From Granulicella sp. (GTDB lineage Bacteria > Acidobacteriota > Terriglobia > Terriglobales > Acidobacteriaceae), in the NCBI GenBank assembly GCA_027339965.1, contig DAHWNL010000021.1, positions 1 through 64,000 of the forward strand: a stretch of 64,000 nucleotides of DNA, written 5' to 3'. The position numbers were made by a program. Of this stretch, positions 34,201-37,200 are shown piece by piece; position 1 is the stretch's first letter, and the number at the start of each line of letters is the position of its first letter.

Positions 34201-37200
34201 GCAACCTCTAGCGTTCGGGCCAGGCGCTGCCTGGAGTCAATAGCCAAAAAGGAGAGCAGGTAGGAGTACAGGAACTCGCCCTCCAGCATGAAGTAGACGC
34301 ACAGGATGATGGCGGTGAAGAGATCGAAGACGCGTGAGAGCCAGAGCGGCGCTGAGGCTAGAAGGTATTGGGCGGTAGACGCGGCGGCGCTCTCGCCCTG
34401 TTCGGCGATGGAGTCAAAGCCCAGCTTGTCGGCCAGGGGAAGGCTCTTCACCTTGTCCAGAATACGGGGAATGCGCCGGGGAAGATCCGCGCCGAAGAGC
34501 CTGATGTCGCGCAGAACGGGCGGCAGGGCGACAACCAGCAGCAGTGCAACGGCCAGGGAGGCCGAGAGCACCAGGGCAACGATGGCCAAGGGCCGCGATG
34601 GAGACCAGCGGCCGATGCGCAGGTCCATAATGTTCTGCACCATGGGCATCATCACAACGGCGAAGAGGGCGCTGACGTAGACCAGTTCCAGCACCGAGCG
34701 CAGTCGCCAGGCGAGAACCAGACTTAGCGCGACCGCAAAGGCGAAGAGGATGGAGCCCTGAGCCGACGAAGAGCGCAGTGCGCCCCTCTCCCCCGGTCCG
34801 GGAACTTCGGTTTGGCTGGGCGGAAGGGGCAGCGGGCACGCTCCTGTGGGCTTCCAGAGCCGTTGCCTGGGATGGGCCGTCCCAAGCGGGTAGGTTCAAG
34901 GCGTCATTCCAGAGGAAGGCGCCCGGGGAGGTAAGGCTCGGCCATACGCGGCGAGGAAGACTGCTTTCTATAGAGATGCTCTCACCGGACACGCTCGGGG
35001 GCAAATCGGCTGGCTGGAGTTGGAGGCGAACGGTGGCGTCTGAGATAAGCCAGAAGGCGGCGGGCTGACGGGGTCCGGAACGGAGGCTGCCGTGGGGCAG
35101 CTATTCCGATTCCTCACGAGGGTGTTCAGCGAGTTCGGCGTGGCGGAACAAGCTTGATCTGGAAGATGGTGGGCCACTCCTTGCCGGTGACGAAAAGGCG
35201 ATCGTGCTGGGGATCGTAGGCGATGCCGTTCAGAACGGCCTCGGCGTCCAGCCGTTCCACCGAGGGAAGGATGCCGGTGAGGTCGATCCAGGAGAGGACG
35301 CGGCCGTTGCTGGGAGAGATGCGGGCGATGCGGTTGCTGTGCCAGACGTTGGCGTAGATCTGGCCGTGAATGTACTCCAGCTCATTCAATTCGGTTACGG
35401 GCTCTCCCTGGTCGGTGACCAGCAGGCTGCGGACGGTGTGGAAGTCTCTGGGGTCGCGGAAGCGCAGGGTGGCCGAACCATCGGAGGTGATGATGTTAGT
35501 TGCATCGCGGGTCATGCCCCATCCTTCGCCGCTGTAGTGAAAGGTGGCGATCCGGCGCAGGGTGGCGCGGTTGTAAACGAAACCAATGTGCGACTGCCAG
35601 GTCCACTCATACAGGTTTGGGCCCCAGTTGATGATGCCTTCTCCGAAGTACTCCGGGGGAAGCTCAACATGCTGCAGGACGCGCCCGGTAGCCGGGTCTG
35701 TCACCAGCACCTGGGAGTGTCCCTTGAGCCCGGTGCCCTCATAGAACTTGCCGTTGAGATAGAAGAAGCCCTCCGTGTAGGAGGAGGTGGAGTGAGGAAA
35801 GGTGGCGACAACGGTGTAGCCATAGACGGGGGTGGGGCTCTGGGCCTTGCTGCAGGCGGTAGCCAATGAGACAGGAAGCAGAAGGAAAGAGACCAGCAGA
35901 AGGTTGGCGAGCGGGGTACGACGCATGATCTCAAGGATAACCTGTGCCCTCCGCAGCACGCAGGAGCCCTGGAGAAGCAGCCCGAGGGCGCAGGATCGCA
36001 CGCGAATCCAACCCTTGCCGGATGCTGGGCACGGGCCAGCCGCGGGCGTCCTGATAGAAAGACGCCCATGGCGGCAGGGCCGTCGTGTGCTCGCCGTGGG
36101 GCGCGTGCTCGGCACCGAGGGCGGCTCAGCAAGAGCCCTAGTGACCGGTAGCCGGCGCGGCGCTGCGCAATGTTGCCAGGATCGCTTCCGCTGTGTCGGC
36201 GGGCGTTCGTTTCTCGGTTTCGATGCAGTGCGTGGCGATGCGCTGGTAATGAGGGTGGCGGTGGTGAAAGCGGCGCTCGGCCAGATTGAGGTCGGCGAGA
36301 TTGGGGCGGGCTGTGGCGGAGGGGTCCGCGGCCTGCGCCGCGCAACGGGCGACGAGAATCTCAAAGGAAGCAGAGAGATAGATCACGACGGTGTGGGGCG
36401 TCTGTTCCAGCAGCAGACGGTTGCCGAGCTCTTCGGGAGCTCCGCCGCCCAGGGCGATTACCACCTGCCGCTGGCCGAGCAAGGAGGCCAGGGCCGCGGA
36501 CTCGAGATGGCGGAAGTGGGCCTCGCCGTCTTCGGAGAAGATCTGCGGGACGGACCGGTGCTGGCGCATTTCAATCTCGTGGTCGAGATCCAGGAACCGC
36601 CAGCCCAGATGCTCAGCCAGCAGCCTGCCGGTCGAAGTTTTGCCGGATCCCATAAAGCCTGTGAGAACGATGCGGTCGATGCCGCGCAGGGTTTGGATGG
36701 CAGAGTCCGGGTGAGGTGGAAGACTACATGGGGTGGGGCCTTCGGCCCGGGAGCGATCGGATGGAGTGGGTTTGCCGAGGCTGGAGTCTTTGGGCATGGA
36801 GTGGGTGGCGGGGTGGGTAGGTTCGGTCAGGGTTGCTGTACTCATTTTCGTCTCCGGAGTTGCTTGCAGGGGAAGCAAAGTTGGTTTTGCTGCAAAAGAA
36901 AACCGCAGACCCTGTGGGCTGCGGCTCGGTGACTAGCTGTTGATCTCTGGGTGAATCAGGAAATCTCACAACGCCGCCGGGCCGCTGGTGGATACCAGTA
37001 GCAGTAGCTAAATCGGCCGGTGGTGGGGCTGAAGCTCATTGTGCATGATGCTAGCGCAAAGCCGGAGATGTGGCAAGTGCGCCGGCCACCGTGTGTTCGT
37101 AGCAAGTGAAAATGTCCGGTTTTCTTAGCACATGAAGTGTCCGGTTTTGTTTTCTGAACCCGCCGCCGTGTCGTTAGCACATGAAATGTCCGGTGGAAAC

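Follow-up and report, generated by a model that had tools for sequence, protein, structure and literature searches.

A probable leader-peptide attenuator with mixed phenylalanine, tyrosine and tryptophan codons upstream of the shikimate kinase gene in Granulicella

The shikimate kinase gene, aroK, lies on the minus strand at positions 36138..36845 of the window (the whole 64,000-nt stretch of Granulicella sp. DNA that was analysed) and encodes a protein of 235 amino acids (PF01202, E 9.5e-41), with its ATG at 36845 and a Shine-Dalgarno (SD) sequence, GGAGA, at 36855-36851. All upstream features described here are on the same strand. A motif scan identified a putative -35 hexamer (TTGCCA, 37071..37076), the block of which (CTTGCCAC) is kept in 29 genus loci, and the alignment of these loci supports a -10 hexamer (TAGCAT, 37048..37053) 8 nt upstream of the ATG of a short open reading frame (ORF). 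The resulting promoter, TTGCCA-17-TAGCAT at 37076-37048, is the sole promoter-like site between 36000 and 38000 (shuffle mean 0.4). The ORF (36956..37039) runs from the ATG at 37039 to a TGA at 36958-36956 and encodes a peptide of 27 codons, MSFSPTTGRFSYCYWYPPAARRRCEIS, in which codons 10-16 (36992..37012) form the regulatory cluster UUU AGC UAC UGC UAC UGG UAU (F-S-Y-C-Y-W-Y). As judged from the sequence, transcription would begin at this ATG or a few nt from it, and the leader mRNA would thus be leaderless or nearly so.

Folding of the leader places segment 1 (CCACCGGCCG, 37014..37023) in the 5′ arm of a putative anti-antiterminator hairpin, P1. Segment 2 (GCGGCCCGGCGGC, 36973..36985) has segments 1 and 3 as alternative partners, as indicated by folding and duplex energies. 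It is followed by a variable hairpin, P2 (36942..36967), which contains the leader stop codon, and by segment 3 (GUCACCGAGCCGCAGCCC, 36916..36933), which is both the candidate antiterminator partner of segment 2 (duplex -21.2) and the 5′ arm of a terminator. The 3′ arm of the terminator (GGGUCUGCGG, 36912-36903) and its T-run (UUUUCUUUU, 36902-36894) occupy 36894..36912 and end approximately 50 nt upstream of aroK. The terminator stem, CCGCAGCCC/GGG(U)CUGCGG (~36926-36903), is bulged and is overlooked by a simple terminator scan, while folding reveals it. The first-pass annotation had described a 27-codon ORF with F-S-Y-C-Y-W-Y and a terminator before aroK, and the promoter, ORF, bulged terminator, T-run and aroK were all located; the hairpin is present as claimed, with an energy of -17.1 to -18.3 kcal/mol in place of the -18.6 given there. 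Exact copies of two conserved 15-16-mers also occur elsewhere in the genome (C39:4131 and C66:13196), in unrelated surrounding sequence, and were rejected as chance matches.

In this genome aroK is monocistronic with its own leader copy, and a paralogous leader is found upstream of trpBA. This second leader, at C54:24714 on the plus strand, encodes MKLLYSPRFTPSLRYWPWPAASVE and is followed by a terminator (-20.1) and by genes for trpB (PALP), trpA (PF00290), chorismate mutase (CM; PF01817) and DAHP synthase (DAHPS; PF00793), so that the ORF, the terminator and the four domain assignments agree with the operon described earlier. A covariance model built from aroK leaders only (R1) finds this trpB leader with 37.9 bits (E 4e-6), and the two leaders are therefore regarded as paralogs. 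The earlier view that an antiterminator is supported for the aroK leader only did not hold, since the trpB leader has a strong candidate antiterminator duplex of -24.1 kcal/mol, reached or beaten by 2/200 shuffles. A leader was also present upstream of trpB in all 20 of the further genus loci fetched; the earlier range of one to two Tyr codons was retained in these, and the ranges for Phe (previously four to six) and Trp (previously one) widened to 2-6 and 1-2, respectively. A crude small-ORF screen of the same genome revealed no comparable leader upstream of the two chorismate-binding (trpE/pabB-like) genes or of pheA.

The aroK-leader DNA was matched in 36/101 genus genomes with G000 included, which reproduces the 35 of 100 other genomes reported earlier. 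A broader model (R2) has matches in 93/101 genus genomes and in 52/53 of the high-quality ones. R1 matched 17/151 genomes of the family sample, and the 19 loci obtained are upstream of aroK (4), trpB (5), DAHP synthase (8) and chorismate mutase (1). The remaining match (L046, in G111) is spurious, being limited to a terminator-like part, lacking an aromatic ORF and having an unrelated ORF downstream. In the class sample, R2 matched 23/151 genomes from 3 of 13 families (12/19 in f1, 9/19 in f7, 1/19 in f5 and none in the ten others). The 25 new loci are upstream of aroK (6), trpB (5) and CM/DAHPS (13), with no target found for one; this count excludes the duplicates L052, L053, L054, L075 and L076, which are identical to L050, L047, the aroK leader described here, L034 and the trpB leader of the same genome, respectively. 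One leader cut by a contig end (L007, in G015) was excluded from all alignments. The number of Trp codons per leader differs with the target, the means being 0.6 for DAHPS/CM, 1.1 for aroK and 1.4 for trpB.

The reading frame and codons of the leader are under selection. The ATG is conserved, and in the leader alignment the stretch from ATG to cluster has whole-codon gaps only (a single 3-nt deletion and a single GTG start, of the GVG type, one codon later); start codon and frame up to the cluster are preserved in 47/47 leaders analysed. Relative to the Trp codon, aromatic codons are conserved as Phe at -5 (42/47), Tyr or Phe at -3 (41/47) and -1 (45/47), and Tyr, Phe or Trp at +1 (41/47), with Trp itself in 45/47; at the Tyr codons, synonymous changes between TAC and TAT occur in the genus alignment. 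Aromatic codons make up a mean of 22% of leader codons, compared with 5.9% of all six-frame codons. The motif reported earlier in 13 of 13 aroK loci is conserved in the 29 genus loci but not in its strict form, as the Gly may also be Ala and the last Tyr may also be Trp or Phe.

A chance coincidence of an ORF, a hairpin and a T-run has nothing but the shortness of the ORF in its favour, and we regard it as practically negligible. Five of the seven cluster codons are aromatic in the aroK leader, and at least five are found in only 389 of the 6,568,593 stop-free 7-codon windows in the six frames of the genome (5.9e-5 per window). That the element recurs in 93/101 genus genomes and across three families of the class, upstream of aromatic-pathway genes, likewise argues against coincidence.

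The start of the ORF is further marked by a TAnnnT hexamer 7-12 nt 5′ of the start in 55/69 distinct leaders (shuffle mean 6.7), which backs the start site proposed in the first-pass annotation, while an SD-like tetramer is found in only 1/69. The central codon of the cluster, Cys in the aroK leader, is Cys in 26/47 leaders and Arg (CGC) in 15/47; with the exception of L034, the 26 Cys-type leaders are genus aroK leaders. This codon was previously left unexplained. In the wider family the CGC lies at the base of the hairpin CGCUACUGG/CCAGUAGCG; the Cys codon, one transition (UGC/CGC) away, is therefore probably a structural spacer and not a sensing codon.

Two hairpins in the leader covary. 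P1 (-22.8 kcal/mol for the region) was obtained as the RNAalifold consensus of the 29 genus leaders; its apical hairpin is 79.5% paired, with double changes at four pairs, and was matched by 0-3/500 shuffles. For the terminator helix, pairing across 23 leaders is complete (100%) and 14 double-change cells were counted, a result that none of 500 shuffles equalled; a hairpin (-16 to -29 kcal/mol) with a T-run is present in 47/47 leaders. By eye, the stem of P2, UUCUCUG/CAGAGAA, recurs with varying loops in the genus alignment.

The antiterminator region (nt 55-124) folds with -30.4 kcal/mol, and candidate duplexes of segments 2 and 3 were found in 47/47 leaders (-17.8 to -37.3 kcal/mol). The core of segment 2, GCGGC, is invariant in the 23 aligned leaders. 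Scored by fixed columns, the candidate antiterminator consists of a 5-bp core that never varies and an extension paired in 76.8% of cells compared with 74.7% in shuffles, 32/500 of which were as good, so that covariation is not significant in this test; support for the antiterminator therefore rests on a register-free energy test. In this test, native pairs of segments 2 and 3 had a mean of -22.75, as opposed to -19.88 with swapped partners, and 0/20,000 permutations were as low (23 representatives, which are mutually related). Individually, the native energy was matched by at most 10/200 shuffles in 20 of the same 23 related representatives.

Alternatively, the conserved terminator and upstream hairpin could be under the control of an RNA-binding protein or a small RNA, or the terminator could be leaky and constitutive, with an incidental ORF in which CGCUACUGG/CCAGUAGCG happens to read as Arg-Tyr-Trp. 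In favour of this are the fixed-column result for the antiterminator and the fact that peptide conservation largely coincides with paired RNA, the codons of YRYW being the 5′ arm of P1. However, positions that are unpaired stay aromatic as well: the codon after Trp, in the hairpin loop, is Tyr in 29 leaders, Phe in 8 and Trp in 4 of the 47, by exchanges requiring as many as two base changes, the Phe at -5 is kept, and further aromatic codons occur at varying upstream positions in the wider leader set. The start codon is conserved, the frame holds as far as the cluster and breaks down directly after it, and the -10 box keeps its fixed distance from the ATG. As to a protein, no TRAP-like repeated triplets were seen by eye in the leader sequence. 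Control of this kind, with an incidental ORF, is thus considered unlikely.

The loss of frame also bears on a TnaC-like arrest peptide, in which the nascent peptide together with a free aromatic amino acid would stall the ribosome over segment 2 and so favour termination. Such a peptide would fit the strong conservation of (F/Y)-R-Y-W-(Y/F)-P-(V)-A-A, with its Trp and Pro, and the position of Trp at approximately codon 15 in most leaders. In 11/29 genus leaders, however, a 1-nt deletion directly 3′ of W-Y-P shifts the frame (PPAARRRC... as opposed to PQRPGG...), and the peptide ends after 27 or 30 codons, the stop having moved by three codons, while the nucleotides CCAGCGGCCCGGCGG are kept despite the shift. 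P-V-A-A is no more than a reading of segment 2 (CCAGUAGCGGC), 10/21 DAHPS/CM leaders are without any Trp codon, and the intrinsic terminator requires no Rho. We therefore consider an arrest peptide very unlikely.

High nucleotide conservation over approximately 150 nt, together with alternative helices, might also point to a riboswitch or a T-box-like RNA, with direct binding of an aromatic amino acid, of a pathway intermediate or of uncharged tRNA. No Rfam family reached its gathering score anywhere in the window, and at E up to 10 both leaders gave chance-level matches only, among them no leader family (Trp_leader, Phe_leader) and no T-box. The central part of the element varies in both length and sequence, a conserved multi-helix junction was not seen, and direct binding would leave the ORF signals unexplained, which makes this explanation highly improbable.

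Taken together, the sequence evidence makes it probable that the aroK leader is a classical ribosome-mediated transcription attenuator, responding to the charging of Phe-, Tyr- and Trp-tRNA; the principle of leader-peptide attenuation is outlined in the accessible text of PMC11802643. With smooth translation, or none, segment 2 would be covered or paired with segment 1 in P1, which includes the aromatic codons, so that the terminator (segment 3 and its 3′ arm, 3:4) would form and polymerase would halt approximately 50 nt before aroK. A shortage of charged Phe-, Tyr- or Trp-tRNA would stall the ribosome at codons 10-16, where it would occupy or separate segment 1 and leave segment 2 free to pair with segment 3 once this is made. 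The resulting antiterminator, with the core GCGGC:GCCGC and its extension, would sequester the outer half of the 5′ arm of the terminator and allow read-through into aroK. As a single stall site combines the codons of all three amino acids, the leader may act as an OR gate in which a shortage of any aromatic amino acid would trigger the switch. The attenuator reading put forward in the first-pass annotation is thus well supported, and the sensing of each of the three amino acids, also part of it, is a plausible extension of the codon content.

Folding places constraints on how such a switch would work. At equilibrium the full-length leader retains the terminator even with a ribosome masking the aromatic codons, so that antitermination would have to depend on kinetics, as it does in the classical trp model. 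In folds of truncated transcripts, 6-9 of the 12 nt of the 5′ arm of the terminator are paired upstream even without a stalled ribosome, and thermodynamic folding alone therefore does not reproduce the switch. A ribosome at the stop codon would barely cover segment 2 in the 27-codon variant and would leave it uncovered in the 30-codon variant; termination would thus require P1 to form again in the wake of the ribosome.

More tentatively, paralogous leaderless attenuators might functionally replace TyrR/TrpR-type repressors across the class at the entry of the pathway (DAHPS/CM), in its middle (aroK) and at the end of the Trp branch (trpBA). Each copy would be an OR gate for three tRNAs, tuned by its codon mix, and the near-constant position of Trp (~codon 15) would reflect a geometric constraint linking the 5′ end, the stalled ribosome and polymerase. 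We regard this as a possibility that falls somewhat short of an even chance.

The mechanism itself is textbook and its understanding is unchanged, while the family appears to be new. According to the accessible part of Naville and Gautheret 2010 (PMC2965389), attenuators in the Acidobacteria are essentially unannotated. A literature search, which mostly did not cover work in subscription journals, found no published description of an aromatic attenuator family in this phylum, and the family is apparently undescribed. It represents a concrete, testable regulatory element in a phylum that is hard to handle genetically, and suggests how one pathway with three end products might be controlled without isoenzymes or repressors, by mixing three kinds of codon in a single leader. 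Its members also make up a clean set of leaderless leader peptides, with a -10 box near the start in most and an SD-like sequence in a single one. The two covariance models could serve as the seed of an Rfam-type family and help to annotate operons of aroK, trpBA and aroG/F more accurately in Terriglobia-like genomes.

The leader-peptide attenuators of pheL-pheA and trpL-trpEDCBA in Escherichia coli (Rfam Phe_leader and Trp_leader) provide the closest framework. Like these, the aroK leader has a short ORF whose regulatory codons lie in segment 1, helices 1:2, 2:3 and 3:4 that in its case are predicted to exclude one another, and an intrinsic terminator followed by a biosynthetic gene for the amino acids that would be sensed. 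Unlike these, it matches no Rfam model, interleaves three amino acids (F-x-Y-x-Y-W-Y) in place of a run for one, and has no SD sequence, its start being 7-12 nt past the -10 box. Downstream of the family lie aroK, trpBA and CM/DAHPS in place of pheA or trpE. The E. coli aroL gene (shikimate kinase II) is repressed by TyrR/TrpR, which makes shikimate kinase there, as is proposed here, a step that responds to at least two of the aromatic amino acids. TyrR and TrpR are protein repressors that respond to free amino acids, whereas the cis-acting RNA proposed here would sense tRNA charging.

The aroR-aroF attenuator of Corynebacterium glutamicum, said to have been described by Neshat et al. in 2014, is a further comparison. 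In the accessible text of two papers (PMC4046766, PMC11802643), aroR is a mixed aromatic leader (Phe-Tyr-Phe) before the DAHP synthase gene aroF, so that the novelty claimed in the first-pass annotation for a multivalent aromatic attenuator was overstated. Phe limitation alone is described there as effective and Tyr availability as without effect despite the Tyr codon (PMC11802643), for which reason trivalent sensing is not guaranteed in the aroK leader either. Leader peptides of C. glutamicum can also be without a ribosome-binding site (Morbach 2000, cited in PMC4046766). Compared by these described properties, the two systems share mixed aromatic codons in a leader upstream of a gene of the common pathway, while aroR belongs to another phylum and has three regulatory codons only, none of them Trp. 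The same partial sources do not report aroR before aroK or trpBA, whereas the acidobacterial family has paralogous copies on as many as three types of operon.

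The 27-codon leader ORF of aroK (MSFSPTTGRFSYCYWYPPAARRRCEIS; ATG 37039, stop 36958-36956, minus strand) carries the cluster Phe-Ser-Tyr-Cys-Tyr-Trp-Tyr at codons 10-16. It is preceded by a sigma-70-like promoter (TTGCCA-17-TAGCAT, 37076-37048, minus strand), the sole one found in 36000-38000, which ends 8 nt 5' of the leader ATG, and is followed by a putative terminator, a bulged GC-rich hairpin (-17.1 to -18.3 kcal/mol on folding) with the run UUUUCUUUU (36902-36894, minus strand). The aroK gene (36138-36845, minus strand; PF01202, E 9.5e-41) starts at ATG 36845, ~50 nt past this run, with a GGAGA Shine-Dalgarno sequence. 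The first-pass annotation, which had described an aromatic leader ORF and a terminator before aroK, is accurate in these elements; in the six frames of this genome, at least five aromatic codons per seven occur in 389 of 6,568,593 stop-free windows (5.9e-5). Since the next gene 3' is that of a glutaminyl cyclase-like protein (PF05096) and no aro gene, aroK lies here outside any aro operon.

The aroK product has a Pro/Thr/Ser-rich N-terminal extension of ~60 residues, differing in length and sequence among relatives, ahead of the shikimate kinase domain (Pfam match from residue 65 of 235). A second ATG at 37046 (minus strand) is the start of a 12-codon ORF (37010-37046) read in a different frame; because it is only 1 nt past the -10 hexamer, this ORF is probably 5' of the transcription start and unused. 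Just 5' of the leader promoter are three direct copies (37097-37193, minus strand) of a ~20-nt motif (CCGGACAYTTCATGTGCTAA-like), seemingly kept 5' of the aroK leader in close relatives. The motif, with seven matches in the genome when up to four mismatches are allowed, also occurs at C50:92541 and 92566, C24:20358 and C76:699, is intergenic there, often in tandem pairs, and may represent a small dispersed repeat or else a protein-binding site.

A second leader ORF (MKLLYSPRFTPSLRYWPWPAASVE; contig C54, ATG 24714, plus strand), followed by a terminator of -20.1 kcal/mol, precedes trpB (PALP), trpA (PF00290), an 87-aa chorismate mutase (PF01817) and a DAHP synthase with a ferredoxin-like N-domain (PF00793, PF18152). 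A covariance model built solely from 29 aroK leaders (R1) has exactly two matches in this genome, the aroK leader (162.7 bits) and the trpB leader (37.9 bits, E 4e-6). As the aroK-only model recovers the trpB leader, the two are, judged by their sequences, paralogs and share more than a design. In a crude small-ORF screen of the 450 nt upstream, no comparable aromatic or Trp leader was found at the chorismate-binding (trpE/pabB-like) genes C70:8519-9289 (minus strand) and C28:88907-89737 (plus strand) or at pheA (C10:65400-65927, plus strand), and the leader appears to be carried in this genome only by aroK and the trpB-trpA-chorismate mutase-DAHP synthase operon. The DAHP synthase gene is followed (locus L031, C54:23500-31500, at 5026-7337) by two genes of the same orientation whose ends overlap, one for an amino-acid kinase (PF00696) and the other for an aldehyde dehydrogenase (PF00171); they may be a proB/proA-like pair co-transcribed with the aromatic genes.

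DNA of the aroK leader has a match in 36 of 101 genus genomes including this one, which reproduces the earlier count of 35 of 100 other genomes. A broader covariance model (R2), built from 23 diverse leaders, matches 93 of the 101, with one to four copies each, and 52 of the 53 of high quality; trpB is downstream at all 20 R2 loci fetched from genomes lacking an aroK-leader DNA match. R1 with strict filters matched 17/151 genomes of a family sample and R2 23/151 of a class sample (12/19 in family f1, 9/19 in f7, 1/19 in f5, none in ten others), counts from samples in which weak matches are lost, so that elsewhere the leader is 'not found' rather than 'absent'. Unpublished genomes are included, namely G023 (in the 36 and the 93) and G319 and G348 (in the 23), the leaders of the last two (L067 and L072, respectively) also being in the class-sample target list and the peptide set below. 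The 19 family-sample loci precede aroK (4), trpB (5, one being the locus of this genome), DAHP synthase (8) and chorismate mutase (1), with one spurious (L046); the 25 new class-sample loci precede aroK (6), trpB (5) and chorismate mutase and/or DAHP synthase (13), with no target recognised within 1.4 kb at one (L072). All recognised targets are aromatic-pathway genes.

Three genus genomes (G060, G053 and G039) contain three to four leader copies each, two or three being of the aroK type in G060 and G053; as the assemblies are 3-5% contaminated, real duplications and mixed strains are equally likely explanations. At the 3' end of one leader (L022, G040:C57) the terminator 3' part (CTGCGG and T-run) is seemingly present twice in tandem (…TTTTTCTTTTTTAGCCCTGCGGTTTTTCTTTT…), so that one T-run follows another.

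Among 69 distinct leader peptides, those before DAHP synthase/chorismate mutase (n = 21) average 4.0 Phe, 3.0 Tyr and 0.6 Trp codons (10 without Trp), those before aroK (n = 37) 2.1, 2.6 and 1.1 (none without Trp) and those before trpB (n = 10) 2.5, 1.7 and 1.4 (four with two Trp). The commoner Trp codons before trpB are suggestive, the leaders being interrelated and the comparison therefore no statistical result. Relative to the Trp codon (45/47 leaders), Phe is kept at -5 (42/47), Tyr or Phe at -3 (41/47) and -1 (45/47), and an aromatic codon at +1 (41/47). The +1 codon, in the loop of an apical hairpin, is Tyr in 29, Phe in 8 and Trp in 4, some of these swaps taking two substitutions. From ATG to cluster, the genus alignment has whole-codon differences only (one 3-nt deletion, one GTG start a codon later). 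In 11 of the 29 genus leaders, a 1-nt deletion right after Trp-Tyr-Pro puts the remainder in another frame, turning PPAARRRCALL-stop into PQRPGGVVRFSD..-stop and 27 codons into 30, and the nucleotides CCAGCGGCCCGGCGG after the cluster are nearly invariant despite the shift. Because the frame is kept up to the cluster and these nucleotides beyond it, the comparison indicates coding constraint on the 5' part and RNA-level constraint on the 3' part, which is the pattern that a leader peptide should leave. The Cys codon of the cluster, previously left unexplained, can be accounted for. Codon -2 is Cys in 26/47 leaders (the genus aroK leaders and one of another genus) and Arg (CGC) in 15/47; since CGC builds the base of a family-wide hairpin and UGC is one transition away, this codon would serve as a spacer rather than a sensor.

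A TAnnnT hexamer ends 7-12 nt 5' of the start codon in 55 of the 69 leaders (shuffles: mean 6.7, maximum 14), and a Shine-Dalgarno-like tetramer is present in only one. The leaders are thus predicted to be nearly leaderless; the Trp codon is at about codon 15-16 in most.

The terminator helix (segments 3:4) is paired in 100% of cells in an alignment of 23 leaders (A3), with 14 double-change cells and a covariation score reached by 0/500 shuffles. The anti-antiterminator hairpin P1 (segments 1:2) has the apical family form CGCUACUGG-loop-CCAGUAGCG, whose 5' arm consists of the Arg-Tyr-Trp codons (79.5% of cells paired, four pairs with double changes, 0-3/500 shuffles as good); in genus aroK leaders the hairpin is lengthened by a basal helix (CCACCGGCCG/CGGCCCGGCGG), and a folding energy of -22.8 kcal/mol is obtained for the window's P1 region. 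Segment 2 (GCGGC...) copies the terminator 3' arm (..GCGGC), and the sequence of segment 1 mimics that of segment 3 (CCACCG-GCCG versus CCACCGAGCCGC). The candidate antiterminator, a segment 2:3 duplex occupying the outer part of the terminator 5' arm, is possible in 47/47 leaders (-17.8 to -37.3 kcal/mol; window -21.2, trpB leader of this genome -24.1). Among 23 interrelated representatives, native partners average -22.75 kcal/mol versus -19.88 when swapped (0/20,000 permutations reach the native value), and in 20 the native energy is matched by at most 10/200 shuffles. Set against this, in a fixed-column covariation test the 5-bp core of the antiterminator is invariant and its extension pairs 76.8% of cells versus 74.7% shuffled (32/500 as good), and the register varies by lineage.

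A ribosome stalled at codons 10-16 would hold segment 1 or part it from segment 2, which could then pair with segment 3 as it emerges, preventing the terminator and allowing aroK transcription. With ample charged tRNA, or no translation, segment 2 would be covered or back on segment 1 and the terminator would form. Equilibrium folding favours the terminator even with the ribosome masked, so antitermination would have to rely on kinetics, like that of the classical trp attenuator. The mixed codons would give a response to shortage of any one of Phe, Tyr and Trp, a sensible logic for common-pathway genes.

The first-pass annotation had regarded both a multivalent aromatic attenuator and its use on aroK as new. 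The former claim goes too far, as a mixed leader (aroR; Phe-Tyr-Phe) of Corynebacterium glutamicum aroF (DAHP synthase) is described in the available portions of PMC4046766 and PMC11802643, the latter a review stating that aroR responds to Phe limitation and not to Tyr. The use on aroK holds within the literature searched, where no report of a leader of this kind was found, either from Acidobacteria or upstream of an aroK standing alone (subscription journals being mostly beyond the search). No matching Rfam family was found, and acidobacterial attenuators were essentially unannotated according to the portion available of Naville and Gautheret 2010 (PMC2965389). The leader family is real and well conserved, and its proposed mechanism is already known, being that of trpL and pheL; some traits are distinctive, namely the leaderless start, the interleaved trivalent codon cluster, the paralogs on three operon types and the dedicated aroK copy.
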